This document shows, one piece after another, positions 3,928 to 20,142 of a stretch of DNA of 64,000 bases. Under the pieces are notes generated by a model that was not told where the DNA came from, searched no databases, and was given only the letters and a program-made list of their open reading frames with translations. The translations under genes were made by a program, and so were the position numbers. The DNA is from a virus. Within the stretch, counting starts at the first letter, position 1. Every line of letters begins with the position of its first letter. The stretch lies in the IMG/VR virus record IMGVR_UViG_3300025727_000008, positions 1 to 64,000 of that record. One strand, written 5' to 3'.

Positions 3928-4626
3928 TCAATCAAAGAAATTATCGCCTATTACTTTCGCTTCTTCAAAATCTAAAGTAAATCCAATACTAGGAAATTCA
4001 GTGGCTATTATATTTGTAGTAAATGAACGAACAAAACCAGTTACTCCTGTATGATTTTCAGTTTTTTCAGCAGCCTTAAAAATAGATGATTGGTCATTCA
4101 TAGTATTGCCTGTTCCCATTGTAAAATTATTATCATAGGCTCTGTTCTTCCACGAAAAAGGTATAATTGGTAGTGTTTCTATTGAAGTATTTGCATCAAC
4201 ATTTGTTCTATAATTAAATTCATTATTAACCCTACTAGGATAAAAAAACAAAATTTTACTTATATTTTGGTCATCCTGTAAAGAACTTGAATCAACATAA
4301 GAATGTATTAATTGTGCCAATTCAAATGAAGTCATAACAACCTCTTTTGCATCGGCTGTTCCTGATTGTTTCTTAATAGTCTGCTCAACTAATGTTCCCG
4401 ACAAAGACATAGTTTTGGATGATAACCCCATATCAAATGCTAAATTAAGAGATTCCCCTCTAACTGCACCTGATAATGGAACTCCCATATTTGGAACAGT
4501 TTTAGTAGTCATAATATTTACAGAGTCAACATGCAAAGGAATTCTATTTATTATGGCATCATCACCAATTTCATTCCTTCTAGATAATTCTAACATTACC
4601 ATGTTATTAGGGTCTAGTGCGCTCAA
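3928..4626 (-). CDS. Distal tail / baseplate hub-like protein
   Basis: Immediately after tape measure; beta-rich, ends FTLDFEE; positional inference. Confidence 0.45.
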   Translation of the reverse strand: MSALDPNNMVMLELSRRNEIGDDAIINRIPLHVDSVNIMTTKTVPNMGVPLSGAVRGESLNLAFDMGLSSKTMSLSGTLVEQTIKKQSGTADAKEVVMTSFELAQLIHSYVDSSSLQDDQNISKILFFYPSRVNNEFNYRTNVDANTSIETLPIIPFSWKNRAYDNNFTMGTGNTMNDQSSIFKAAEKTENHTGVTGFVRSFTTNIIATEFPSIGFTLDFEEAKVIGDNFFD

Positions 4627-6248
4627 AAGTTATTCACCACCGAACCGGTTCTATTCATTCTAAGGTTAATTTCTCTAGCAACCTTATTTGCTATATCTCG
4701 TATCTCTGTATCGGAAGCACCAACTCTACCATTAACATTAACATTAATTGTATTACCACCTGAGCCGCCCATCATTCCTTTACTATCTGCATTAGAATGT
4801 ACTCTTGAGCCTCTTGGTAGAGATACTAATTCTGCACCTCTTTCTCCAACTAATTGCATATTAGAATTAACTACCCCGCCTGTACTAAATGGATTAATTG
4901 CCGCTACTAAAATACCTCCTAATGTCCATGCTAGTATAACAGGTAAAGAATAAATAGCAATACCAAGATATGTTAAAGCACCAAGTACTAAACCTATTGA
5001 AATCATTATCCCTGCTATTGTATCTACTGTTGTTGCTCCACCTTCTAATAAAGATTCTAATATTTCTCCTAAAATAGATATAACTGATATAAATGATAAC
5101 CAAACAAGCCCCCCTAATACTTGAAGTGCTAATTTTAGAATATTAGCACCAATTAAAATTATCCCCCCAACAACCATTAAAAAATCACCCTGAACAAACC
5201 CATCGTATAATAAATAGAAAGCACCTACTAAATCACTAATGGTATTCATTATTCCACCTAACACAAAATTAATTTCTTCTTTAATAGTAACCCATGCTTC
5301 TATTAATGGTTCTTTTAATAATTGGAATGCTTTTCTAATAGCAAATAGAGTCAATACAATAATTGCAAACCATTTCATTGCTGTTTTAAAGAAATTCCAC
5401 CCTGATTTAAGATAGCCCTTGAAGTTCTTTCTTATCTTTGTGAAAAAATCAAACAATAGCACTTGTTTTTCAATTACCCCTTTCCTAAACTCAGAAAACT
5501 CCTTTTGTTTATCAAAATATTTTTGCAACCCCTTTCTTCCACTGAGCCAATTAGTAATTTTACCTTCTTTCTTAGGTTTCTTATTTTGTCTTTCTGTAAT
5601 TATGTTATCCATATAACGTTTCTTTTCTAATGTTCCAGCCGCTTCTTCTTTTCTATCCTCAATTTGTTTAAATTGTCTTTCTGTAATTTCTTTGGTGTAA
5701 TTTAATACTTCTTTCATATCATCTAAATTTTTAGTATCAATACCCTTCTCACCAAAAAGAAGATATTCTACTCCATCAAAACCCTTAAAAGAGTTTCTTA
5801 AAGTTTCCACCATATTTTTTGCTTTTTTAAGTCCAGTTGCTCCATCATTCAAACTATTAAAAAAATCCTTATCATATAATTTTTTAAATGGCTTCATTGC
5901 AGTTTCCATTTCTCGTACTTCCAATAAGGCTTCCATTGCCTTCATTGCTTCTTCCGTTGATGCCGTTTGTTTCTTATGATATTCGTTTATTATAGTGAAA
6001 CCTGCTCTAACTTTATTTTGTAATTGCCAAAAAGTAGGAAGAATACCCGAAGCCAATCTACTGATAACACCTAACGCTTTAGAACCTGCTAAAGTATCAA
6101 TAGTCTTTTGAAACCCAGTTTGAGAACCCGACAAAGCCTCCGTTGCCCTTTTTACATCATATAATTTTGCAGTGAATACATTGGCTTCTTTAGCCGCTTC
6201 AATAAAGATAGAGCGAAAGTTATCAATCTCATTGTTATTTGAAACCAT
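4623..6248 (-). CDS. Tail tape measure protein
   Basis: Helical N-terminus, hydrophobic segments, C-terminal FSTGGVV..LVGERGAELVSLPRGSRVHSN typical of TMPs; follows tail chaperone. Confidence 0.85.
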   Translation of the reverse strand: MVSNNNEIDNFRSIFIEAAKEANVFTAKLYDVKRATEALSGSQTGFQKTIDTLAGSKALGVISRLASGILPTFWQLQNKVRAGFTIINEYHKKQTASTEEAMKAMEALLEVREMETAMKPFKKLYDKDFFNSLNDGATGLKKAKNMVETLRNSFKGFDGVEYLLFGEKGIDTKNLDDMKEVLNYTKEITERQFKQIEDRKEEAAGTLEKKRYMDNIITERQNKKPKKEGKITNWLSGRKGLQKYFDKQKEFSEFRKGVIEKQVLLFDFFTKIRKNFKGYLKSGWNFFKTAMKWFAIIVLTLFAIRKAFQLLKEPLIEAWVTIKEEINFVLGGIMNTISDLVGAFYLLYDGFVQGDFLMVVGGIILIGANILKLALQVLGGLVWLSFISVISILGEILESLLEGGATTVDTIAGIMISIGLVLGALTYLGIAIYSLPVILAWTLGGILVAAINPFSTGGVVNSNMQLVGERGAELVSLPRGSRVHSNADSKGMMGGSGGNTINVNVNGRVGASDTEIRDIANKVAREINLRMNRTGSVVNNF

Positions 6249-6916: not shown

Positions 6917-8452
6917 TTAATGCATTAAAGCCCATTTACCTTTATATTGTGCATTGGATAATGTTCTTGCTGATGCTGTGAATGCTACTTCTATTGCTCC
7001 TTTATCTTCAGGGAATGGGATATCAACAGTACTGAGTATAAAATCTGTTAATGTTAATGTAATAAATTCTTCTGTTTCTTTTGTAAAGTTCACAACAATA
7101 TTACCTGTTGATTCGTTATCCTTTCTCAACTCATCCCATAATGTTGTATCTGTAATTAGTGCCGTCATTGAAACTTCATATGTTCTTTGTGCAGGTATAT
7201 GTTCATTCATAACTTGCCTACTTGTATTTCCAATATATCTTTGAGGGGTTATGTTATTATTAATAGTAATAGAACCTGATTTAATCCTTGCATATGTTTG
7301 ACTGAATACTTCTAAAGCACCGTCTGAAAACATAAATGGATAATTATCAGAATCAGTAACACTAAAGTTTTTCAAACCACTAGGAGTTAGAACTCCATTG
7401 TGAGGAATGTAATTATTAGCGGTATCAGTAACAACATCATATGCCCTTCTAGTAACTAAATCTAAACTTGTTTTTAACTCCATACCTTCTTCAAAATTAA
7501 GAGTCAATGTATTAACTTGGCATCCTGTAAAGATACGAGAAAATATGTTTTCATGTGGGGTCAGATTATCAACGGCAGTGGTTGCAGCCACACCTGCTTT
7601 TCTATAAGATACATCTAACCCAAAAGACGGTAAAGATGCTCCATTGGATTCATCAAAGGTATAGGTTAAAACACTAGTAGTTCCCATTTCATGATAATTG
7701 GCTAAATCACTAATACTAGTAGCAGGTGTAGTATCAGTAGTATTTGTTGAAAGAGGCGGGTATTCAGCACCACCCGCAATTGGAACTCTAACTAAACCTT
7801 GTGAAACATCATTAGCAATGAACTTATTATTAGTCGATGAAGTCCAATCAACAGCATTATTGGTAATTCCTAATCCTGTTACTTTTCCTAAAGCATAATA
7901 CAACCAAGAACCATTATTTAATGATAAATCTAAAGAGCCACCACTAACAGTTTCAGCACCTCTAAATTGTAAAGCAAGATTTCTAGTATTTCCACCCATT
8001 AAAGCCAGTTGTGTAACTGGTGCATCAACGCTTGGTGGAGAAAAGGAATTAACTAACCCTAACCAATTATCAGATAATAGTTTTTGGTTAGTAGTTGAAG
8101 GTGCAATAACAGGCGCACCGAATGATAATAATTTAACATCTACATTTTCTGTACCGATTGCTTCCATATCAGAAACATTTGAATCAAAAGTAAAACTATT
8201 TTCAGTATTTGATGTAACCGTTACATAGTAAACTACTGCGGGAGTAGCAGAATCAGTAACTTTCGCTCTGCATCCAACATATAAATCAGTCAAAAACTTA
8301 AACTTATCACTATCGGCAGTAGCCAAAACTGCAATATTTAAATCGGTATTTCCAGCAGCCCAAGTAACTACCATACTATCAAAATACATATCCATTTCCG
8401 GCACTAATGTAGCCATTGTCCCTGCGCCTACAAATACTTCATTACTTACCAT
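6917..8452 (-). CDS. Major tail tube protein with insertion domains
   Basis: LPSFGLDV, FTGCQVNTLTL, SGSITINNN motifs of siphovirus tube proteins; position before chaperone/TMP; no sheath gene seen. Confidence 0.8.
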   Translation of the reverse strand: MVSNEVFVGAGTMATLVPEMDMYFDSMVVTWAAGNTDLNIAVLATADSDKFKFLTDLYVGCRAKVTDSATPAVVYYVTVTSNTENSFTFDSNVSDMEAIGTENVDVKLLSFGAPVIAPSTTNQKLLSDNWLGLVNSFSPPSVDAPVTQLALMGGNTRNLALQFRGAETVSGGSLDLSLNNGSWLYYALGKVTGLGITNNAVDWTSSTNNKFIANDVSQGLVRVPIAGGAEYPPLSTNTTDTTPATSISDLANYHEMGTTSVLTYTFDESNGASLPSFGLDVSYRKAGVAATTAVDNLTPHENIFSRIFTGCQVNTLTLNFEEGMELKTSLDLVTRRAYDVVTDTANNYIPHNGVLTPSGLKNFSVTDSDNYPFMFSDGALEVFSQTYARIKSGSITINNNITPQRYIGNTSRQVMNEHIPAQRTYEVSMTALITDTTLWDELRKDNESTGNIVVNFTKETEEFITLTLTDFILSTVDIPFPEDKGAIEVAFTASARTLSNAQYKGKWALMH

Positions 8453-10268: not shown

Positions 10269-13200
10269 CTACTTACTCCTTGCGAGTAACTTGCTATACT
10301 TATTACTTGCCCTTAGAAATATATCGTTATTTACACTTCTTTGTTGCGCCCTTTCTCTTCTATGTCTTCCTTTTATTTCAGGATTAGGTTCTCGCCTATT
10401 ATTATTTCTATATCCAGTATCAATAAATTGACCGGCTATTTTAAAATCTAATGTCCTAATAGATTCCCATGTACTTCCCTTTTCTAATACTACTGGTATA
10501 TATTCTATCTCTCCTAAATGTCCAGTAAATACTTCTCTCCAATGTTCTTCTGTTTGTTTTATGTTATCCTTACCAGTGAATATAAAGTCAATATAAAAAT
10601 TATAAAACTCAGTAATTATATTTTCTTTTTCACTTGCTATATTAGTATCGCTATTTAAACCTAATAAAGCATATATTGTAAGCCCTTGAAAATCCTTCTT
10701 ATTATCAGTTATCAAGGTAAAATGTCTTGTTATTTTAGCGAAACTTTCAAATATTTTTATTATTTCTTTTCTATCTTCTGGTTTTATCCAAAATAAATGT
10801 TCATATAATTCTATTTCATCTAACATATGTTTAGTAGAAGGCACTTCAGAATTCCTGCTACCTCCCCACAATTCTCCTGCTTGAAATGTACCTGAAGAAT
10901 TAATTGGTACTATAGCATCTATTTTTCTTTGCGTATCTCCTTCATCTCCTGCTTTTATTATTGATTTAAATGTATATTTATTTACATTGTAAGTTTTTCT
11001 AAATGAAACTTTCGTATTTTCTTCGTCAGGAAATTTATATTCCGGCATACTAAGTGCTTGGTCTTTTTTATCCCATTTACTATCTTTTTTATCCTTATTT
11101 TTATATGCATCAGTTATACCATCTATTAAATGTTGCATTTCTTCTTCATTTAAATCCTTTAAATGCATGAAGTCCGTTTGTCCTACATTCCATGCTGTAG
11201 GATTAAATAATTTCTCATAATAATATTGTAAACCGTGGTCATACCAAGCAGGAAATTTTTGTTCTTGTGTACCTAATTTGTACTCTTTCTTAAACCATTT
11301 ATATTCATCTGTCTTTTCAAATTCATTGAATAATTTTTTATTTTCTTTATTACTATATTCCACTTTAATGTCTTTTAACATTGATTTAAAAGCATCATGT
11401 TTCTCTTTATTATTTTTAATATTTATTACATATTGTTTGCCATCATTTTTAAATTCTACTTTATCTTTATCTACTTCATCTTGATTAAAGAACCATTGCA
11501 AATATGGCTTAGATTTATCATCCATAAATAATTTATATGAAGGATAATCATGCTCATAATCTCGGTCTGTATGAATAGTTTCTTTTAAATTATATCCAAA
11601 TATAGAACTCAAATCACGAACCTTATTCCTGCTTAAATATTCCTCTTTCCAGTCAGGATTGTCTGCCATATACTCTTCTGTTGGTGTCCATTTACCATCC
11701 TTTATATCCTCATATGTTGGTGGATAATTCAATGCTTCCAATATATTCTGATACTTTTCATATGCCTTATATAATTTTAAACTACCTACCTCTCCGTCTT
11801 TAAGTATTCGTTGAATATTTATATGCTGTTCAATCTTACCTATTTCTATATCTAAATTACTTAAATCATCAATTAGTAGTTTAAATGCCAAATTTATGGA
11901 AGCAGTTTGACTTTTACTTTCTTTTTGCCAACTATTAGCACTACCACTTGATACAGTTCCTTTAATAAAACTATAAATTAATTCTCTTATTGTTTCGTTA
12001 TCAGGTCGTTTGAAGGGTTCAAATTTTTTATTATTATATTGATAATAAGAATTACCATCAAATATTGTAGTTAAATCTCTTTCAGTATCTATCAGTATAT
12101 CCATTATCTTTCTTACCCTGCCAACATTAGAGTATAATTTTTCTTGTTGTTTTTCATTAAAAATATCTTTTTCTTCACTTCTAGAAACTGTAGTGCCTCG
12201 TTTTAAATAATCCTTAAACGTTCCAATATCCTTTAATGCTTTAACAATCTCAGTATCAATTTTAAAATTTAAAACCATATCTCCTAAATCTAAGTTACCA
12301 TCTTGGGGAGTTATCCTTAACAATATATCTTTTTTAATATCAGATAAACCCCTTTTAGGTTTAATTTCTCCATCCATTATATCTATAATAGTTTCTTTTA
12401 GAGTTTCTTTATCATTAAATCCCTTAATTTCATCATTAATCTTTTTAAATAATTGCACGTCAGATAAGTTTTTACTAGTAGTATTAGTCAATACAGAATA
12501 TAGGTTATATGTATTGTCCTCTTTAAACCGACGTTTGATTTCATCTAATCTTTCTCTATTTATTATTGCCACATCTACTGCAAGGTTCTCCATATTTTTA
12601 TCATTCATATAATCTATATGACCATCTACTTTGGTGTTAATATTAGCCCGTATTTGTTTATCATTTACAAGAACTTTAATTCCCTCTTCATATTCATTTT
12701 TGTCTTTAACTATATTTCTTTGTATTAATAATAATGATGACCTATCCGATATGCCAGTAAGTTGGGGTTCTATTTTAGTTGATTCTTTTTCTTCCTTAAT
12801 AATATTAATAGTTTTAACAATAGATTTTAATAATTGTTTTTCCATTGGTTCTTCATCTTCTTCTATCTTAGTTGATGCTTGTGATTGTTTATATGCCCTA
12901 AATATCTTTTTAAATAATCGTCTTATATCAGTAGGTAGTAACTTGTTATCGTTAAAAAATGTTTTGAATTTATTTTCTACTTTAGTTCCATGTATTTTTT
13001 CAGGTGTTAAACTTTCATCATAATTATCTAATATTCCATTTATTGTTTTAATCTCTACATCGTTAAATTTCCAATCTTTTTTAAATTTATCAAACTCTTT
13101 CATTTCTTTTGTTTTTTCCAACCATTCATATAGATTTTTATTACCATTATATAAATCAGTAATTATATCAAAAATTTCATTTACTTGTATTTCTTTTAAA

Positions 13201-14003
13201 AATGTATCTTTTTCTACAAAATTATAAGGAAAACCCGACTCATCCCAATCACCAAATGGTTTATCAAATACATTTTTAATATAATCTAATATTTTTATTG
13301 TAATAGTTATCTTTTCTTTTTTAATATCTACATATAAATGATTTTCTAATATTTTAGTATTTAAAATAGGTTTTGATGTTTGGATTTTATTCTCAATTTC
13401 CTTTACTACTGTACTTTTATAATCTATTGTAGATTCTCGTATTTCCTTTTCTTCGTTTTTTGTATCTGCTACTGCATCTTTATCACTACTAGTAGATAAT
13501 TCCGTTTCTTCTAATATCTCTTTAAGATTTCCTTTATCAAGCCCTTCTGCTACAGTTTTTTTTCCAATGCGTTTTATTATTCGCGTAGTAAGAATATCAT
13601 CTTCTATATATCCTTCATTATGTAATAATTGTATAATCCCTAATAAAGTAGAGTTTGATAATTTATCCACTACTATTATTTTTAAACAATTTTCAAGTTC
13701 TGTTAAATTTGTTTTAGAAGTTTTACGGTTAGGATATTCTGCTCTTAAATCTTCCAGTTGAACATTTAACAACAGTTGAATTTTATCTTCACTTTGTTCC
13801 ATTTTAGATGTTATGTCTAAAAAACTATCCGAAAAAATATAAGCAGCGTAATCTAAAAAAAGGTTGGGTACATTATCATTAGAAACTATTATGTTATCAT
13901 CTTTTGTTGTATGATTAATTATTTCCCAACCATTAACTATTTCTTCTGTTAATGTAATTGAAGTAGGTAAAGTAGGTATAATTCTCTCAGTAATTTTTAC
14001 CAT
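10269..14003 (-). CDS. Large K/E/D-rich hypothetical protein (possible internal virion protein)
   Basis: 1244 aa ORF with SD; no recognisable motif. Confidence 0.6.
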   Translation of the reverse strand: MVKITERIIPTLPTSITLTEEIVNGWEIINHTTKDDNIIVSNDNVPNLFLDYAAYIFSDSFLDITSKMEQSEDKIQLLLNVQLEDLRAEYPNRKTSKTNLTELENCLKIIVVDKLSNSTLLGIIQLLHNEGYIEDDILTTRIIKRIGKKTVAEGLDKGNLKEILEETELSTSSDKDAVADTKNEEKEIRESTIDYKSTVVKEIENKIQTSKPILNTKILENHLYVDIKKEKITITIKILDYIKNVFDKPFGDWDESGFPYNFVEKDTFLKEIQVNEIFDIITDLYNGNKNLYEWLEKTKEMKEFDKFKKDWKFNDVEIKTINGILDNYDESLTPEKIHGTKVENKFKTFFNDNKLLPTDIRRLFKKIFRAYKQSQASTKIEEDEEPMEKQLLKSIVKTINIIKEEKESTKIEPQLTGISDRSSLLLIQRNIVKDKNEYEEGIKVLVNDKQIRANINTKVDGHIDYMNDKNMENLAVDVAIINRERLDEIKRRFKEDNTYNLYSVLTNTTSKNLSDVQLFKKINDEIKGFNDKETLKETIIDIMDGEIKPKRGLSDIKKDILLRITPQDGNLDLGDMVLNFKIDTEIVKALKDIGTFKDYLKRGTTVSRSEEKDIFNEKQQEKLYSNVGRVRKIMDILIDTERDLTTIFDGNSYYQYNNKKFEPFKRPDNETIRELIYSFIKGTVSSGSANSWQKESKSQTASINLAFKLLIDDLSNLDIEIGKIEQHINIQRILKDGEVGSLKLYKAYEKYQNILEALNYPPTYEDIKDGKWTPTEEYMADNPDWKEEYLSRNKVRDLSSIFGYNLKETIHTDRDYEHDYPSYKLFMDDKSKPYLQWFFNQDEVDKDKVEFKNDGKQYVINIKNNKEKHDAFKSMLKDIKVEYSNKENKKLFNEFEKTDEYKWFKKEYKLGTQEQKFPAWYDHGLQYYYEKLFNPTAWNVGQTDFMHLKDLNEEEMQHLIDGITDAYKNKDKKDSKWDKKDQALSMPEYKFPDEENTKVSFRKTYNVNKYTFKSIIKAGDEGDTQRKIDAIVPINSSGTFQAGELWGGSRNSEVPSTKHMLDEIELYEHLFWIKPEDRKEIIKIFESFAKITRHFTLITDNKKDFQGLTIYALLGLNSDTNIASEKENIITEFYNFYIDFIFTGKDNIKQTEEHWREVFTGHLGEIEYIPVVLEKGSTWESIRTLDFKIAGQFIDTGYRNNNRREPNPEIKGRHRRERAQQRSVNNDIFLRASNKYSKLLARSK

Positions 14004-14016
14004 TCATTAAACCACC

Positions 14017-14751
14017 TTAAGCAAGCCATTTAGCCCAAGCAACTGCTTTGCCTAATCCTTGTGCTAGACCTAAACCGCTCTGTGGTGGGGTGTATGTTGG
14101 CTGACCGGTCTGAGGGTCAATCCAATAAGGATTATTCATACTATCATATCCTTGTGGGGGAATAGGATAACCACTGCCATTTTGTAATGCCATTTGTTGT
14201 TGGTTCATAGTATTATTAAAATTAGTACTCATGTTACCACCTTGTATTTGGCTAGGATTTAAGCCTTGAGGGTTCATACCTTGTTGCTGCATACCCATTT
14301 GTTGCCGCATATCCATTGGTGTTTGAGTTTGAGATTGGGGTTGTGATGGAGATGAGAACCCTTGTGCTTCAAGATATTGTTGTTTAGCCATCCTTCGTTG
14401 CATTACAACTTCACTATTAATAGCAGTAGCCAAAAGATTAGCCATATCTAAATCAATATTTTCTTGAGTAATCCTAGTAAATTCAGTAAGAGCATCTGGA
14501 GATATAACAAGATTACCACTAGAACTTTGATTAAATTCTAACTTAATTAACATTTGGCTAACTGCTCTTTGAACAGTATCTTCAATTAGTTTTTCCATTG
14601 CCTTTAAAAATGATTCACCGTGATATTGAAAGAAATCTTCAACATGATTTTCTTGTAAAGTTAAAAGGTTATTGATTGTTTTAAATTGGGTTTGCTGTTG
14701 CGCCCCCATTTGTGTTGATAAGTTACTATTACTCGTTCCAAATAACCCCAT
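14017..14751 (-). CDS. Q/M-rich low-complexity protein with C-terminal amphipathic helix
   Basis: MGLFG N-terminus, Q-rich tract, GLAQGLGKAVAWAKWLA end; coupled to upstream gene. Confidence 0.7.
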   Translation of the reverse strand: MGLFGTSNSNLSTQMGAQQQTQFKTINNLLTLQENHVEDFFQYHGESFLKAMEKLIEDTVQRAVSQMLIKLEFNQSSSGNLVISPDALTEFTRITQENIDLDMANLLATAINSEVVMQRRMAKQQYLEAQGFSSPSQPQSQTQTPMDMRQQMGMQQQGMNPQGLNPSQIQGGNMSTNFNNTMNQQQMALQNGSGYPIPPQGYDSMNNPYWIDPQTGQPTYTPPQSGLGLAQGLGKAVAWAKWLA

Positions 14752-15437
14752 TACTCAACCACCTCTTCCGTAACAATTGCGACCTTAACGCCATCGGTTA
14801 ATAGAGTTTTGACTCGCTCATTAATACTGTTAGTTTCTATTACTAATCTAAATAATTCTTCTTCTTTAGATTCAATACCCATAGTAGGTGGTTTAATTGT
14901 CCAACCTAATGAAGATAATGATTGCATGTCTGTCTGTTTTAAACTAGTCAATGGGGCAGAAATTAAAGGGTTTAACATTTTAGCAGAAGGAATATATGCA
15001 CTAAAAGAAAGACCATGTTCTTCTGCTAACATTTGTTGTTCTAACATTTCATATTGCTTATGGATTGTTGCGTGTTTATTACAATAAGTTCCCCTCATAG
15101 GATAGCCCCTTCTTACTTTATGTAATGGTAAAGGGGGGCGCATAGAATCTCCTGCTTCCCATATTTTTTGAGAGCCACATACAACACATCTATCTTTAAT
15201 ATTATATTTAAATTTATATGGGAATTTAAGAAATGTTTTTTTCTCAGGCATTAAAACTTTAATTATTTCCTTCAATTGTTTTTTGGGTTTTAAATTTTTA
15301 TATTCATATTGCATTACTGACCCTGCTGCTCTCGCAGTACTAAAAGTATCTAAATATGGGTTTGAAGTAATATGTGCTGATTGTGCGCCTATTAAATTTG
15401 GGGGGTTGAAATTCATTGCCATGTGATATTCTCCCAT
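14751..15437 (-). CDS. Hypothetical protein with Zn-binding CxxC...CxxH and C-terminal coiled coil
   Basis: CVVC and YCNKH motifs; TAATG-coupled to GTPase. Confidence 0.65.
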   Translation of the reverse strand: MGEYHMAMNFNPPNLIGAQSAHITSNPYLDTFSTARAAGSVMQYEYKNLKPKKQLKEIIKVLMPEKKTFLKFPYKFKYNIKDRCVVCGSQKIWEAGDSMRPPLPLHKVRRGYPMRGTYCNKHATIHKQYEMLEQQMLAEEHGLSFSAYIPSAKMLNPLISAPLTSLKQTDMQSLSSLGWTIKPPTMGIESKEEELFRLVIETNSINERVKTLLTDGVKVAIVTEEVVE

Positions 15438-16105
15438 TAGTAATCCTTTATCATTGTTAGGATTCCCCTATATACCATTTCTGAATCTGATTTAGCACTT
15501 ACTATGTATTTATAACAAGGTATTCCTTTATCATTTAACTTTTGCATACCATTTCTAAATGAGTCAAATATTGGATGTTTTTCAATAGATGTATAGTCAT
15601 ATTTATCTTTCCATAAATCATGTTTATTAGCCCATAATCCAACTGCAACAGGGTAATCATGTATTTTCTTTTTTTGTTTTTTTCCTTTGTGGTTCCAATA
15701 AGGAGTACAAATTGTATCAACTAAAAAAGTCCAACATAATTGTTGTTCTATATCATAATGTTTATCCATATGTCTATCATCAATCATAAAAATAATATAT
15801 TTTACTTTTCTAGTTTTCATGTCTTGAACCCATTCATTCCAAAATACTGTTTCACCACCAACATCAGCAGTTTTAATGGTATGAGCATCACCATCTAATT
15901 TTACAAATTTTCTAGATGGTCGTTGTAATCCAACAGTTCTATCTGTAATAGCAGGGATTTCACCTCTAGTTCTTAATTGATGATGTAGAGTAGTTTTACC
16001 TACTTTACTTGCACCATATACTCCAAAAGGAATTGAATGTAATCTTTGATAGATTCTATTCATTCCTTCTACAAATAAAATAGCGAAACCCGCCATCACC
16101 GACAT
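15437..16105 (-). CDS. Ras-superfamily small GTPase, Arf-like
   Basis: G1 GASKVGKT, G2 TVG, G3 DVGG, G4 NKHD, G5 SAK; N-terminal hydrophobic/amphipathic helix. Confidence 0.9.
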   Translation of the reverse strand: MSVMAGFAILFVEGMNRIYQRLHSIPFGVYGASKVGKTTLHHQLRTRGEIPAITDRTVGLQRPSRKFVKLDGDAHTIKTADVGGETVFWNEWVQDMKTRKVKYIIFMIDDRHMDKHYDIEQQLCWTFLVDTICTPYWNHKGKKQKKKIHDYPVAVGLWANKHDLWKDKYDYTSIEKHPIFDSFRNGMQKLNDKGIPCYKYIVSAKSDSEMVYRGILTMIKDY

Positions 16106-16111
16106 TATTAA

Positions 16112-16336
16112 TCACACCAAATGATGCCATAAATTAACAATCCCATTCCATGTAGAAGAATATAAATTATACCCAAATAAAGGTATTGCATGACCTATCA
16201 AAAAACCTATTACTGTTGAGATTATACCCCATAACCAAAACCTCGCTCTAAGAAACCAAATATCAGCAGAGTGCGCTCTTTGCAAATCATATGCTAATGT
16301 GGATTCATCGAACCCCATTAGTATCTCAGATACCAT
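16112..16336 (-). CDS. Small membrane protein
   Basis: Hydrophobic FWLWGIISTVIGFLIGHAIPLF segment. Confidence 0.7.
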   Translation of the reverse strand: MVSEILMGFDESTLAYDLQRAHSADIWFLRARFWLWGIISTVIGFLIGHAIPLFGYNLYSSTWNGIVNLWHHLV

Positions 16337-16343
16337 TTAATCA

Positions 16344-16787
16344 CTACTCGTTAAATCCAGTTAAAAATGTAGGGTTTATTGTATTGCTATCAAATTGCGG
16401 TTGTTGGTTTTGTTGCATTGTAGGTAAGTTAGCATCTCCATACACCGGCTGACCGAAGGTTTGATTGAAACTTCTTAATGATTCTCTAACTCTCTTTCTA
16501 TTATCTTCATCCCTTGCTTTTCTATTCCAATAAGAATCTATTTTTCTTTGTAGCAGGAAATCTTCTATTACATCATTTAACATTAAATCAAATAGTGCTT
16601 TCAATAACATGATACCCCCTACTGTGCATATACCGAATAATACTGCATGGGAAAGTCCTGTGTATGGGAAATCCATACCATATAAAGTATAGAAATAAAT
16701 ATTTGTTCCACTAATTGCACCAACAAATAGTATAGTCATTACTAGTCTTGTATCTGTATCAATACTAGGCAAACACATCAACTCCAT
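16344..16787 (-). CDS. Two-TM membrane protein with basic coiled-coil tail
   Basis: Two hydrophobic helices followed by charged and Q-rich tail. Confidence 0.7.
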   Translation of the reverse strand: MELMCLPSIDTDTRLVMTILFVGAISGTNIYFYTLYGMDFPYTGLSHAVLFGICTVGGIMLLKALFDLMLNDVIEDFLLQRKIDSYWNRKARDEDNRKRVRESLRSFNQTFGQPVYGDANLPTMQQNQQPQFDSNTINPTFLTGFNE

Positions 16788-17056: not shown

Positions 17057-17466
17057 TTCACATCCTTAGTGGTTTTCTTCTTAGTAGTGGTTTTCTTAGC
17101 AACGGGTTTCTTTTCTTTTACTGTTTCTTTAGGGACAACAGTTTCAACCACTGCTTCAACCACTGCTTCAACCTGCTTTTTAACAGGAGTTTTTACTTTC
17201 TTAGGAAATAATATATCATTAACATCGCCTTCTACACCTAAATGTCGTCGTATTGCTTTAATTCTATTTTCAGGTAAATTAGCAATATCCTTTTTATCAT
17301 CAACTGTAAAGTCAACTTGGATTGCTTCATCTCCTAAATAAAGTGCTGCGATTCTAGCAGGTACTTCACAAGGGGTTTGTGCTGTAAGAGAATATATTTT
17401 TTCTCCAACCCCTCTAATTTCTAATGCGCCTTCAACTCTATGTGTTTTCAATCTTATTAATGCCAT
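17053..17466 (-). CDS. Hypothetical protein with K/T-rich C-terminal tail
   Basis: Likely start ATG 17466 (MALIRLK) after GGTGA SD, not the longer track start. Confidence 0.6.
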   Translation of the reverse strand: MALIRLKTHRVEGALEIRGVGEKIYSLTAQTPCEVPARIAALYLGDEAIQVDFTVDDKKDIANLPENRIKAIRRHLGVEGDVNDILFPKKVKTPVKKQVEAVVEAVVETVVPKETVKEKKPVAKKTTTKKKTTKDVK

Positions 17467-17487
17467 AATATCACCATTTTTTAAAGG

Positions 17488-17530
17488 GTAGTAACCCCTA
17501 CCCCGATGTTTCGGAGTAGAGGCTACTACT
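17488..17530 (-). terminator. Stem-loop downstream of MCP
   Basis: GTAGTAACCCCTAC...GTAGAGGCTACTAC imperfect inverted repeat right after MCP stop. Confidence 0.45.
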
Positions 17531-17557
17531 TTACATTTCACTTATTATTTAAGTATC

Positions 17558-18961
17558 TCAAGCACTCTTTAGGTTGGTAATCTTACCTTGACCCTTGAAG
17601 AAGGAACAGCATGTTTCGCCCATTGTGCGATACATACCTTGATTTCCAAGTTTACCAACACCGAATGGATTTCCACTAGTAATTCCATCCTCAAAATACT
17701 GAGTAGGCTTCATTACAGATAACCAAAGATGGTCTGTATCAAGAATTAACATATCACTTAACCTGTTGCTTGTTGATTGACCAGTTGACGGCATATCTTT
17801 AGCAGGGATAATTGGTATGTCGTAGTAGGTTGCCACACGGAAACCTACTTCTTGACCCTTTACTCCACGAACACCATTATGGGAAGGAACTATTTCTTTC
17901 CTATCCATAAATCGCTCTTGTGATTGTAGTAAATCAGAAAGTTTCTGTATGGTATCATATCCAGTAATGATAACTTTAGGATTACCACCGTTAGTGCGGA
18001 TTCTACGAATCATATCATTAAGTATGCTTAGAGTTAAAACTCTACAATTACCTGATGTATAATCAGTACCGAAGTCAACTTCTGCGTCTAGGAAAGATGC
18101 AACACCTGTGTAAGTGTAAGCACCTGTTCCGCCGCTAGTATCAACAGTAACAGTTCTAGTTGAACCAAAGATAGTAGTAGCATCAGCAAGTTGTGCTGCT
18201 GTACCATTATTTGTTTGGTTGTGATAGAATACGTCGTCATCAGCCATCTTTGCAAGTTCAGCAGCAGATGATATAATCTTCATTAGAGAAGTATAATTCT
18301 TCTCAATTCCAGTTGTACCGTTCTCTGAATACTTTTCAAGAGGCATAACTAACATCTTGCTTTGTACTTCAGCGTGTAACTTACCCATGTCTTCTCTAAC
18401 GATAGCGCGAATATCTCCGACACCATCATCAATTGCAGCCATTTCCATTCCTAGTTCTGAGAACTCAAATAGATGTGCAATAGTCTTAGGGCTAACATAT
18501 AGTTTAGTATATTCAGGAGCGATTGCTCTGAATCCATCTGCACCACCTAATGCTGCGTTTTCTCCAACACCACCAATTTGGTCTGCTCTAGGTGTTTCTG
18601 CCTGAGCAGAAGTCATTGCTGCTGTTACTGCATTAGTACCAGTTCCGAATGCTGCACTTGAACCACCAATAGGTCGGCTCTTTAGTACTCTCCAACCACT
18701 AGATGTGTAAGGTCGCTTTGCAAGCATTGCAAGAGGGTTAACTTCTTGGTTTAATACTGACCAAACTTTTTGTCCGTATAATAGGTTGTATAAATCTCCT
18801 AATCCTGCTGCACCGGTAAATGCATTAGCACTAGTATCGTGAGGTGTTCCAAATCCACCAACGACTCCACCTGCTTTAAGCAAAGCGTTGCCGCTACCAG
18901 TTCCACCATATCCGTATGTTGCTGCTTCTAAATCTTTCATTGTCTTAATATATCCACTCAT
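17558..18961 (-). CDS. Major capsid protein (HK97 fold)
   Basis: Follows protease/scaffold; LYGQKVWSVLNQE, GGNPKVIITG, YYDIPIIP, QGKITNL pattern of archaeal head-tail virus MCPs. Confidence 0.9.
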   Translation of the reverse strand: MSGYIKTMKDLEAATYGYGGTGSGNALLKAGGVVGGFGTPHDTSANAFTGAAGLGDLYNLLYGQKVWSVLNQEVNPLAMLAKRPYTSSGWRVLKSRPIGGSSAAFGTGTNAVTAAMTSAQAETPRADQIGGVGENAALGGADGFRAIAPEYTKLYVSPKTIAHLFEFSELGMEMAAIDDGVGDIRAIVREDMGKLHAEVQSKMLVMPLEKYSENGTTGIEKNYTSLMKIISSAAELAKMADDDVFYHNQTNNGTAAQLADATTIFGSTRTVTVDTSGGTGAYTYTGVASFLDAEVDFGTDYTSGNCRVLTLSILNDMIRRIRTNGGNPKVIITGYDTIQKLSDLLQSQERFMDRKEIVPSHNGVRGVKGQEVGFRVATYYDIPIIPAKDMPSTGQSTSNRLSDMLILDTDHLWLSVMKPTQYFEDGITSGNPFGVGKLGNQGMYRTMGETCCSFFKGQGKITNLKSA

Positions 18962-18963
18962 AT

Positions 18964-20142
18964 TTAATCACCCCTCACTAGGTTGTGAACGTCATCCCAA
19001 GTCATAGATGCTGCTGCTTCTAAACTTGTAGGTATTCCTTCAGGTAGCGTCATAGACACTTCTGCGCTCTTGCGAATTGTTTCATTTTCTTTTGATAGAG
19101 ATTTGCGTAGTAATACAAACTCTTCTTTTAGTGCTGCTACATCTGTTCGGGCATCGTATGATGCTGATTCATGGTTTGCTTTCTTTACAGAAAGTTCTTC
19201 AGCAAGTCTAGATTCAAAAGTCTTGCTTAGATTATCATAAGCGTATTTTTCCATCTGTTCTGCTTTAAACTGCACATATGCCTTTTCAACATTCTCTGCG
19301 CTTAGGTTAAGAGTACTAAAATCAGAGTCATTTAGACCCTCACTCTTTAGTTCAGAAGGTGCTGCTGTTGGTTTACCGCCGCTAACAACTAATTCTCCTG
19401 CTTCATAATCTCTAGTTGTATCTTCATCTAGAGCCTTCAGTTCTTCCTCTTCTTCTTCAGAATCTCCCTTTTCCATTTCAGGTTCTTCTTCAGTGTCCAT
19501 ATACTGTTCATTCTTCGTTACTTCTTCATTTTCTTGCTCTCCGAGTCCGTTAACTTGTTTCATTAAGTCATTCAACTCTTCAAGTGCTTTTTCTAATTTT
19601 TCACTCATTGTTTTGTCCTCCATTTTTAAAATGTCGAATTTTGCTTCGGGATTAATACCCTTTTCGCAGATAGTTACTTCGTGTAACTCTAATCTGTCTA
19701 TCTCATTGTATTCGCCAAACTCTTCTGATGTTCTTTGTTTCTTAGAAATCGCTTGACCCCCAATACTAAAAGAACGAAGTGTTCCCTTTCTAATACTTCT
19801 TGAAATTTCTTTTGCTTTTTCTATGTCCTCTCTTAACTTAATAACAACATAAAACCCTACATCATCTACACCGGTTTTATGTAAAGTTCCATTAGTATCA
19901 CGATATTTTTCAATAACTTCTCCAACTTGCACATTAGAATGATTAGACATTACATTTCTATATTTCTTCTCACCCATATATTTTACAACTGCTTCATCTA
20001 AAGCACTTAATGTAATTAAATCGTTTTGTTTATCTACTATTTCTATAGAAGCATATCCACCAATAACTAAATTATCAGACTTAAGAATAGTAAATTCATG
20101 ATGAGAATTTGCTTTCAACAAAAGTGTAGGCTGCATCAGCAT
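18964..20142 (-). CDS. Prohead protease fused to scaffold domain
   Basis: IGGYASIEIVDKQND, MSNH, SFSIGG, LHEVTIC..GINPEA; acidic coiled-coil C-half. Confidence 0.9.
   Translation of the reverse strand: MLMQPTLLLKANSHHEFTILKSDNLVIGGYASIEIVDKQNDLITLSALDEAVVKYMGEKKYRNVMSNHSNVQVGEVIEKYRDTNGTLHKTGVDDVGFYVVIKLREDIEKAKEISRSIRKGTLRSFSIGGQAISKKQRTSEEFGEYNEIDRLELHEVTICEKGINPEAKFDILKMEDKTMSEKLEKALEELNDLMKQVNGLGEQENEEVTKNEQYMDTEEEPEMEKGDSEEEEEELKALDEDTTRDYEAGELVVSGGKPTAAPSELKSEGLNDSDFSTLNLSAENVEKAYVQFKAEQMEKYAYDNLSKTFESRLAEELSVKKANHESASYDARTDVAALKEEFVLLRKSLSKENETIRKSAEVSMTLPEGIPTSLEAAASMTWDDVHNLVRGD

Follow-up and report, generated by a model that had tools for sequence, protein, structure and literature searches.

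What does a complete small GTPase do when an archaeal tailed virus encodes it among its virion genes, directly beside small membrane proteins? Magroviruses are among the most abundant surface-ocean viruses (PMC5434244), and the exit of archaeal tailed viruses from cells has been called "still completely uncharacterized" (PMC10791045). We analyzed a 64,000-nucleotide stretch of a magrovirus genome (IMG/VR record IMGVR_UViG_3300025727_000008, positions 1 to 64,000; hereafter the window), in which a reading of the sequence alone had singled out five coupled genes as a candidate system for lysis, egress or membrane remodelling. A membrane role, in either egress or remodelling, is the best reading that we infer for these genes, and the evidence for it is weighed below against other assignments.

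The cassette and its place in magrovirus genomes

The cassette consists of five tightly packed genes at 14017-16787, downstream of the magrovirus capsid gene, and every ORF described in the sequence-only reading was found on the minus strand at the following positions:

TM2_147, 16344..16787, minus strand: membrane protein of 147 aa with two hydrophobic segments
TM1_74, 16112..16336, minus strand: single-pass membrane protein of 74 aa
GTPase, 15437..16105, minus strand: divergent Arf-like small GTPase of 222 aa
Zn228, 14751..15437, minus strand: Cys/His protein of 228 aa, a probable zinc binder
Q244, 14017..14751, minus strand: Gln-rich protein of 244 aa

TM2_147 and the adjoining gene g92 overlap by 10 nt, spacings of 7 nt and 6 nt follow at the TM2_147/TM1_74 and TM1_74/GTPase junctions, and the remaining two junctions both read TAATG, with the start of Zn228 overlapping the GTPase stop by 1 nt and the start of Q244 overlapping the Zn228 stop by 1 nt; another 13 nt separate Q244 from the next gene. 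Together with the protease, capsid and tail genes, the cassette makes up a single gap-free same-strand array. Its proposed location between the major capsid and neck genes was accurate in that it lies downstream of the capsid gene, but two small genes (162 and 92 aa) intervene. RNA-library contigs span parts of two cassette genes at low depth, TM2_147 at 16438-16766 with zero mismatches and Zn228 at 15060-15291; such contigs cannot prove transcription or rank genes, and we drew no conclusion from the gap left by the contigs over much of 14017-16400.

Synteny in relatives had been set beforehand as a test of the proposal, and cassette order was kept in 80/80 close loci. TM1_74 was present in 80/80 of these loci and TM2_147 in 79/80, in the same position wherever it was held. 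Among contigs chosen by the capsid gene alone, the GTPase and the gene order were kept in all 16 of the 16 informative ones. The GTPase is the most conserved gene of the region, with a mean pairwise identity of 0.81, above the capsid protein (0.77), the protease (0.70) and TM2_147 (0.63).

The arrangement described so far is that of group 1. Group 2 magroviruses carry the cassette as an operon of its own, with inner gaps of <=9 nt and outer gaps of about 128 and 106 nt, and from there it is ~7 kb downstream to the large terminase gene and ~20 kb to the capsid gene; the cassette still lies within the same-strand block leading into the terminase, portal and capsid genes, and a run of small genes particular to this group fills the capsid-to-tail slot. 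The block was found relocated in two more distant virus groups, with its internal order kept. Between groups 1 and 2, the GTPase, Cys/His and Gln-rich proteins are detectably homologous: the group-2 gene that immediately follows the GTPase is a homologue of Zn228 (hhalign 94%, E = 1.4e-7), as is its group-3 counterpart, and the next gene along in group 2 is a homologue of Q244 (hhalign 87%, E = 3.9e-6), which also matches a group-3 protein (E = 4.7e-11). For the membrane proteins of groups 1 and 2, homology was not detected (hhalign probability <=2%), so that what links them to the GTPase across groups is their position and type. Upstream of the GTPase, 63-66 of 74-75 group-2 loci encode analogous proteins with one TM segment each, 184 aa and 80 aa long, and a third, 2-TM protein follows, while group 3 carries a homologue of the 184-aa protein upstream of its GTPase. 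Wherever it lies, the cassette adjoins a very large, fast-evolving ORF. Collectively, the five genes are a conserved unit, a self-contained GTPase module.

This relocation bears on the idea that the cassette encodes neck (head-tail connector) proteins. We rejected that assignment because the block changes place between groups, lying ~20 kb from the capsid gene in group 2; no cassette protein matches a PHROGs head, neck or scaffold family.

A broader morphogenetic role is a rival reading. The cassette could assist particle assembly, for instance by anchoring prohead initiation, maturation or head completion at the membrane or by chaperoning these steps, with the GTPase acting as an assembly checkpoint, and there is precedent in phage T4, whose head assembly begins on the membrane with the aid of the membrane protein gp40. 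Such a role would suit a cassette that sits between capsid and tail genes in the gap-free group-1 array, that stays in the block leading to terminase, portal and capsid genes in group 2, that, like core morphogenetic genes, is missing from no informative relative, and that is conserved as strongly as the capsid protein. However, the cassette does not keep a fixed place with respect to the head and neck genes, the PHROGs searches returned none of the expected families, and neither the GTPase nor the Cys/His protein has a homologue in HCTV-1 and HVTV-1, the haloviruses whose capsid proteins are nearest among cultured viruses; this implies that particles of such a type can be built without these two proteins. 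We consider a morphogenesis factor unlikely, if far from negligible.

The group-2 operon also raises the question of whether the cassette serves at the opposite end of the infection cycle. Its AT-rich upstream region means that a promoter of its own is possible, and the large, fast-evolving ORF next to it has the pattern of host-interaction genes; in podoviruses, the genes for ejection proteins that carry membrane segments come right behind the head genes. On this view the cassette proteins would be packaged or expressed early and would target the membrane of the newly infected cell: the membrane proteins might build an ejection channel, the GTPase might redirect a membrane process of the host, or the cassette might exclude superinfecting viruses. 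A GTP switch, however, needs cytoplasmic GTP and partners and is a poor fit for a packaged protein, and the six hydrophobic segments of the tape measure protein could already serve membrane passage. Entry or takeover is, in our judgement, a distinctly unlikely function.

A divergent Arf-like GTPase and its distribution

The central gene encodes a member of the Ras superfamily. The motifs of a complete G1-G5 small GTPase, as claimed from the sequence alone, are all in place and in order, with G1 GASKVGKT at residues 31-38, G2 T57 in RTVG, G3 DVGGE at 81-85, G4 NKHD at 160-163 and G5 SAK at 203-205, and they are invariant in 22 homologues; G1, G3 and G4 are also invariant among 14 distant family members. 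When the family profile was compared with the PDB, 666 Ras-superfamily chains matched at E<=0.01, and the resemblance is therefore not due to chance. The best sequence match was the Asgard ArfR structure 8oun (E = 1.4e-9), which belongs to GerdArfR1 (PDB 8OUN/8OUM; bioRxiv 10.1101/2024.02.28.582541).

The predicted structure points to the same clade. The GTPase model reached a pLDDT of 64 overall, with switch regions below 50. Foldseek returned at least 500 matches with this model and, among the matches listed, all were Ras, Arf/Arl, Rab (Sec4) or G-alpha proteins, while VIA returned 983 chains at Z>=8. After re-ranking by VIA, with rows within 1 Z unit treated as tied, the best 50 neighbours of this pLDDT 64 model were all Arf/Arl/ArfR/G-alpha/SR-beta proteins at Z 11-12.4, and Arf-clade structures superposed with an rmsd of 3.2-4.0 A over about 150-175 residues. 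Family profiles registered the divergence: the window protein had no Pfam match at gathering score and no match to Arf (PF00025) at E<=0.1, its best Pfam match being SRPRB at 21.1 bits against a cut-off of 25, and NCBIfam and PADLOC gave only a sub-threshold small_GTP match and one chance-level row. Over 14 family members, Arf was the best Pfam family, with 5/14 at E<=0.01 (best 1.9e-15), and the member P0176 has PF00025 on record. Profile search, fold neighbours and the Pfam matches of family members thus bear out the original Arf-like label, and we describe the GTPase as a very divergent Arf-like protein, nearest in sequence and modelled fold to Arf/Arl, Asgard ArfR, G-alpha and SR-beta.

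We compared the viral protein with eukaryotic Arf1/Arf6, Arl1/2/3/6/8 and Sar1, with Asgard ArfR, and with the sister groups SR-beta and G-alpha. It shares with the Arf family the Ras-like fold with G1-G5, a predicted N-terminal helix ahead of the G domain and a G3 of the DxGG[Q] type with a Trp shortly after, and like Arl8 and ArfR it has no myristoylation glycine. It differs in being only about 15-20% identical, in a G5 that reads SAK and is Ras-like, in a ~15-residue insert with a polybasic run (KGKKQKKK, 140-147) ahead of G4, in its more hydrophobic N-terminal helix, in the frequent replacement of the catalytic Gln by Glu or Asp, and in belonging to a lineage encoded by viruses only.

Two of these features had been described somewhat differently at the outset. 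The structure model places an N-terminal helix at residues 2-22, as anticipated; however, this helix is hydrophobic as much as amphipathic, beginning with 11 apolar residues followed by a polar-faced half (mean H 0.44, moment 0.32-0.42), and the segment, conserved across all virus groups, is more hydrophobic than a classic amphipathic helix. Likewise, Glu does occupy the position of the catalytic Gln in the window protein, but it is not fixed, the family having E, Q, D and rarely H. DxGG of G3 is retained in both virus groups; the residue that follows is E (42 sequences) or Q (15) in group 1 and Q (43), E (13), D (6) or H (1) in group 2.

The family itself is small, with just 61 representatives among 1.84 billion proteins. 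No cellular relative was found at E<1e-3 among the 1.84 billion representatives, nor did a search from the divergent member P0176 return cellular relatives. The GenBank phage collection held no match to the GTPase or to Zn228, and pattern scans for distant relatives gave no match with P0135 and P0155 in viral contigs or with P0155 in metagenome contigs. Judged by these sequence searches, the GTPase family is virus-specific, with no credible cellular copy. Species-representative genomes gave two matches only, both on contigs of one Maricaulis-labelled MAG, which we read as mis-binned viral contigs and not as a bacterial copy. None of the searchable magrovirus papers mentions a GTPase or describes the cassette.

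Partner proteins and comparison with lysis and vesicle systems

The tape measure protein apart, the late same-strand block of this genome encodes no small membrane proteins other than TM2_147 and TM1_74. Of the two membrane segments first attributed to TM2_147, that at 48-66 is strong (Kyte-Doolittle 2.13), but the second, at 15-33, is weaker (1.56); they are followed by a highly charged helix (about 70-105) and a Gln/Asn-rich tail. TM1_74 has one hydrophobic segment at about 33-56 (hydropathy 1.81) and a conserved polar N-terminal part (DESTLAYDLQRAHSAD). Neither protein belongs to a Pfam, PHROGs, NCBIfam or PADLOC family.

The two genes downstream of the GTPase encode proteins of a different kind. 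Zn228 contains C84-x2-C87 and C119-x2-H122, the latter within the conserved RGTYCxxH motif, and C84, C119 and H122 are invariant in both virus groups, with C87 absent in some group-2 members. The initial description as a Zn/coiled-coil protein was upheld as to the Cys/His residues, which would form a zinc site, but the supposed coiled coil is a single predicted long helix at 120-140, behind the RGTYCxxH motif. Its model has a pLDDT of 58 with both ends poorly modelled, and it gave no Foldseek match at E<=0.001, VIA neighbours of Z<=4.2 that were helical hairpins only, and no Pfam family. Q244 begins with a conserved MGLFGTSN peptide, continues with a helical domain (about 23-130) carrying an ITQENI motif and a stretch at 130-225 rich in Gln, Pro, Gly and Asn (Q 21, P 13, G 10 and N 10 in 96 residues), and ends in the conserved NPYWIDPxTGQxTYTPP...AWAKWLA; its hydrophobic C-terminal tail is conserved in group 1 only. 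No known family was found for Q244 in Pfam or PHROGs, and ESM Atlas look-alikes of Zn228 and Q244 scored <=0.85 with no family attached. Across Pfam, PHROGs, NCBIfam and PADLOC, none of the four partners matched a holin, endolysin, GAP, GEF, coat or ArvB/ArvC family.

Against this background we compared the cassette with the lysis cassettes of phages. As in those, small membrane proteins are encoded together in a movable block within late genes, and TM2_147, with its two hydrophobic segments and highly charged C-terminal part, has the general look, and only that, of a class II holin as summarised in PMC10791045. Unlike holin cassettes, the viral block has no holin family match and no adjacent endolysin or wall-degrading enzyme, and the host here has no murein. 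No lysis cassette is known to contain a GTPase. The sequence-only reading had recognised no holin/endolysin pair, and Pfam and PHROGs searches likewise gave no holin or lysin match for the cassette proteins or scanned neighbours; these covered 36 of the larger window ORFs, late-block membrane proteins included.

A second comparison is offered by the hosts. In Euryarchaeota, the host small GTPase ArvA, which has an N-terminal amphipathic helix and whose gene adjoins that of the Zn-ribbon protein ArvC, drives vesicle formation, and ArvA-ArvB-ArvC (OapABC) is the vesiculating GTPase operon of Haloferax volcanii and other Euryarchaeota (PMC10927574). The viral cassette could be a counterpart of this operon with which the virus makes or takes over membrane vesicles instead of lysing the cell, and such vesicles might be used as decoys, to carry virions or DNA, or for receptor shedding. 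Both encode a small GTPase with an N-terminal helix beside a zinc-type and a further small protein, a resemblance of operon design and not an established membership (PMC10927574), the Arv system acts on the archaeal cytoplasmic membrane, and the host range of ArvA covers Euryarchaeota. However, Pfam matches to ArvB (DUF2073) and ArvC (DUF2072 Zn-ribbon) were absent from the window proteins scanned, the Cys/His and Gln-rich proteins among them, and from 30 partners drawn from three virus groups; two or three small membrane proteins come on top of this design in the viruses, and the viral GTPase lacks a cellular relative in the searches described above. Tailed viruses are not known to exit cells in vesicles. 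We regard a viral counterpart of the ArvABC system as very unlikely.

A possible GTP-switched event at the host membrane

We put it at about an even chance that the five genes constitute one virus-specific, GTPase-switched module acting at the host membrane; the site and time of action are most likely the host cytoplasmic membrane, late in infection. In favour of a link to the membrane we counted the predicted helix at residues 2-22, the KGKKQKKK insert and, in group 1, the two proteins with hydrophobic segments directly upstream; the euryarchaeal ArvA system serves as a precedent. Counted against the membrane reading were the cassette's lack of an S-layer-attacking enzyme and its group-1 position among head genes, which fits a morphogenetic role equally well.

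In the mechanism that we propose, the GTP-bound GTPase would use its N-terminal helix and basic loop to attach to the membrane next to the two viral membrane proteins, and would there recruit or control the Cys/His and Gln-rich partners. GTP hydrolysis, by way of Gln, Glu or Asp and perhaps stimulated by the Cys/His protein, would time or reset the assembly, and this would bring about a membrane event on which the virus depends. Release of progeny by membrane rupture, with the small membrane proteins behaving like holins, would be the most probable form of this event; vesiculation or remodelling of the host membrane may be the alternative. Egress or lysis specifically is a role that we assign only tentatively, below an even chance. 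More doubtful still is the full picture of the cassette as an egress machine, in which a helix-anchored GTPase and two membrane proteins assemble the Cys/His and Gln-rich partners for a GTP-timed rupture or pinching of the membrane.

The cassette nevertheless supplies a concrete, testable candidate for how archaeal tailed viruses exit from cells, and one that is found in every informative relative. If the egress reading is true, the cassette would represent a novel type of lysis system that departs from the holin-endolysin scheme, and no virus of prokaryotes before it would have been found to encode a small-GTPase membrane machine. Arf-type switches are usually discussed for eukaryotes and Asgard archaea; here a separate, strongly constrained lineage occurs in viruses of Euryarchaeota-type hosts, and this bears on how widely such machinery is distributed among prokaryotes.

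The virus and its five-gene cassette

The window is AT-rich (~30% G+C) and its minus strand carries a tailed-virus late block, in which Pfam and PHROGs identified the large terminase, the portal, an ATP-dependent ligase inside the head module, a prohead protease fused to scaffold, an HK97-type capsid protein, the tail tube, the tail chaperone and the tape measure protein; the replication genes on the plus strand include a helicase, ribonucleotide reductase and a second ligase. The possession of two ligases, one of them within the structural module, has been published as a hallmark of magrovirus groups A and B (PMC5434244). Capsid protein matches in the GenBank phage collection were confined to archaeal tailed viruses, namely the Haloarcula viruses HCTV-1 and HVTV-1 and viruses assigned to Methanomassiliicoccales and Methanofastidiosa. 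The virus record is 78.6 kb, with an estimated completeness of 81%. The tape measure protein (541 aa, window 4623-6248, minus strand, with PHROGs tape measure matches) has six hydrophobic segments and its counterpart in group 2, a more distant virus group, has nine; these could serve membrane passage at entry.

The five ORFs that the sequence-only reading had placed at 14017-16787 were recovered with exactly those coordinates. They sit in a continuous run of genes on one strand (ligase, protease, capsid, 162 aa, 92 aa, the five cassette genes, 1244-aa ORF, 358-aa ORF) with spacers from a 10-nt overlap up to 16 nt, and TAATG overlaps occur at both the GTPase/Zn228 and Zn228/Q244 junctions.

The cassette (window 14017-16787, minus strand), in array order
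TM2_147: one strong and one weak hydrophobic segment, then a very charged stretch
TM1_74: a single hydrophobic segment
GTPase (222 aa): G1 GASKVGKT, G2 T57, G3 DVGGE, G4 NKHD and G5 SAK; a predicted hydrophobic/amphipathic N-terminal helix; an insert, KGKKQKKK, ahead of G4
Zn228: Cys/His protein with CxxC and CxxH
Q244 (14017-14751): a region rich in Gln, Pro, Gly and Asn, with both ends conserved

Zn228 residues C84, C119 and H122, inside the motif RGTYCxxH, are invariant in group 1 (the window virus and its close relatives) and group 2; zinc binding is likely but not certain, because C87 is missing from some group-2 members. The Zn228 model is confident for residues ~40-145 only, and a fold search with it returned no PDB match. 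The Q244 N-terminal peptide MGLFG[TN]SN, helical core and Gln-rich character recur in groups 2 and 3 (the latter also a distant group), and the C-terminal NPYWIDP...AWAKWLA is restricted to group 1. Lying at the extreme N-terminus of Q244 and its homologues (for example in L124 and L176) across three virus groups, the peptide is similar to the MGxxx[ST] signal for N-myristoylation in eukaryotes; protein myristoylation is not known in archaea. Thirty partner proteins from the three groups matched no Pfam family, including DUF2072/DUF2073 (ArvC/ArvB), ArfGAP and holin families, and the cassette partners found nothing in PHROGs, NCBIfam or PADLOC either. In one 91.7-kb relative, L003, the Cys/His protein gene is broken by two frame changes into three ORFs (77, 62 and 105 aa; 7093-7779), and the remaining four genes of the cassette are intact; the split could reflect an assembly error or a real pseudogene.

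An Arf-like GTPase family

Taken alone, the window GTPase gave only sub-threshold Pfam scores (SRPRB, MMR_HSR1, Roc, Ras) and a weak PDB match to Rab33B. A 14-member family profile matched 666 Ras-superfamily chains in the PDB, the best being 8oun_A (E = 1.4e-9), an Asgard archaeal Arf-family GTPase (bioRxiv 10.1101/2024.02.28.582541). An AlphaFold model based on 22 sequences reached moderate quality (pLDDT 64, pTM 0.66), with poor switch regions. Foldseek with this model returned at least 500 matches, and among the matches listed all were Ras, Arf/Arl, Rab (Sec4) or G-alpha; after VIA re-alignment the top 50 entries were exclusively Arf, Arl, ArfR, G-alpha or SR-beta (Z 11.0-12.4, rmsd 3.2-4.0 A over ~150-175 residues of the pLDDT 64 model). 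Over the 14 family members, Pfam Arf gave the best E-value (1.9e-15) and was matched by 5. On these sequence-profile, fold and Pfam results we call the protein a Ras-superfamily GTPase of Arf-like type, and we do not file it as an Arf family member because the window protein misses the Pfam threshold. The proposed replacement of the catalytic Gln by Glu holds for the window (DVGGE) but is not fixed, with E in 42 and Q in 15 group-1 sequences, and Q in 43, E in 13, D in 6 and H in 1 of group 2, a spread more in keeping with a functional catalytic site than with an inactive one.

Only 61 of 1.84 billion representative proteins matched the family at E <= 0.001, and the full-length members among them share the same layout. 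A 5.8-billion-protein set yielded 354 matches, the best 120 of which, all from marine samples, share at least 61% identity. One genome per species across 185,579 species gave two matches only, and both belong to one MAG, labelled Maricaulis (contigs NZMJ01000101.1 and NZMJ01000024.1; GTPase identity 76% and 60%). These are two different magrovirus-like contigs; we read them as mis-binned viral contigs, probably a binning error in the public record, and rejected them as evidence of a bacterial gene. No match was found in cultured haloviruses or any other GenBank phage record, and as far as these data go the family is virus-only.

Conservation and relocation of the cassette

The expectation that all five genes would be syntenic was borne out in close relatives. 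Across 80 IMG/VR loci collected via the GTPase (74-90% identity), the order protease, capsid, g162, g92 (the 162-aa and 92-aa genes), TM2, TM1, GTPase, Zn228, Q244, variable slot, g358, g175 (two downstream genes) and tube is kept wherever the contig reaches. To guard against circularity, we chose a second contig set by the capsid gene alone; 16 of 18 carry the GTPase, and the other two stop within ~1.5 kb past the capsid gene. Mean pairwise identity over 61 loci with full copies was 0.81 for the GTPase, 0.77 for capsid, 0.71 for Zn228, 0.70 for protease, 0.69 for Q244, 0.66 for TM1, 0.63 for TM2, 0.50 for g92 and 0.38 for g162; by this measure the GTPase is the region's most constrained gene.

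Group 2 comprises 80 loci on contigs up to 118 kb, with a GTPase 31-35% identical and a capsid protein related to the window's (44-54% identity, C-terminal part). Its six-gene block encodes proteins of 184 aa (one TM) and 80 aa (one TM), the GTPase, and proteins of ~294 aa, ~205 aa and 80 aa (two TM); gaps within it are at most 9 nt, and median gaps of 128 and 106 nt separate it from the genes on either side. In group-2 loci, of which L100 and L108 are examples, the AT-rich upstream gap includes a conserved AT-rich element, TTATAA...TTATAAT, ~150 nt ahead of the block. Behind this element come a GC-rich leader that is likewise conserved (CTTATGTAGCGCACGCGTTGTCGC), then AAGGAG and the start codon, an arrangement that may represent a promoter and structured 5' leader of the cassette operon. 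Profile-profile comparison of groups 1 and 2 paired the GTPases (99.9%), Zn228 with the gene after the GTPase (94%, E = 1.4e-7) and Q244 with the second gene after it (87%, E = 3.9e-6), and found no detectable homology between the membrane proteins (<=2%). The membrane proteins of the two groups agree in position and type. In group 3, whose GTPase is 52-55% identical to P0137, a distant relative of the window GTPase, the order is 1-TM protein, small protein, GTPase, Zn228 homologue and a further protein. One group-3 virus also carries, ~200 nt ahead of its first cassette gene, a complete chaperonin of the thermosome type (Pfam Cpn60_TCP1, E = 5.5e-133; L173 4250-5785).

By sequence comparison, the GTPase, the Cys/His protein and the Gln-rich protein make up the conserved core; this triad always has small membrane proteins alongside and relocates as a block. 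We considered neck proteins as an identity for the five and rejected it: in group 2 the large terminase follows the block at ~7 kb and the capsid gene at ~20 kb, and the position next to the capsid gene on its downstream side is taken by other small genes, then homologues of g358, g175 and tube. Blockwise relocation argues against five neck proteins and for a self-contained module.

A large, rapidly changing gene always adjoins the cassette, and a functional link between the two is possible. The slot right after Q244 is hypervariable, holding in the window a 1244-aa Lys/Glu/Asn/Ile-rich ORF (10269-14003, minus strand) that matches no known family and in relatives unrelated ORFs of 1.3-4 kb (e.g. 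433 aa in L003, 8505-9806); in group 2 the immediate upstream neighbour of the cassette is a giant ORF (2200-2900 aa; e.g. L172 6126-14900).

A proposed role at the host membrane

Four marine metatranscriptome runs, all from one study, include contigs identical to the window, which weakly suggests activity of the virus in those samples. Depth was 20-160 over the protease(-scaffold) and capsid genes (17225-19615), 4-6 over pieces of TM2_147 (16438-16766) and Zn228 (15060-15291), and 2-6 only for genes beyond the capsid gene in the four runs; such contigs neither prove transcription nor rank genes.

The best-supported reading of the cassette is a GTPase-switched module that would act at the host membrane. 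Supporting it are the GTPase type, the predicted N-terminal helix with the basic loop, the adjacent membrane proteins, the gene coupling, and the conservation and mobility of the cassette as a block. The GTPase would dock on the membrane and recruit its cassette partners, with action timed by GTP. The viral cassette follows a plan similar to ArvA/ArvB/ArvC, a euryarchaeal host system in which a small GTPase, encoded next to a Zn-type protein, drives the formation of membrane vesicles (PMC10927574), but its proteins show no match to ArvB or ArvC. Vesicle production, a morphogenetic role, and a role in entry or takeover are less probable alternatives. In the literature searched, no paper ties magroviruses or Caudoviricetes to a small GTPase. 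Lysis cassettes move as units within late regions, which is one reason to favour egress or lysis. That archaeal tailed viruses lyse by an unknown mechanism (PMC10791045) is a second, and the presence in the cassette of the late block's only small membrane proteins, TM2_147 and TM1_74, is a third; egress or lysis is the outcome at the host membrane that we favour.
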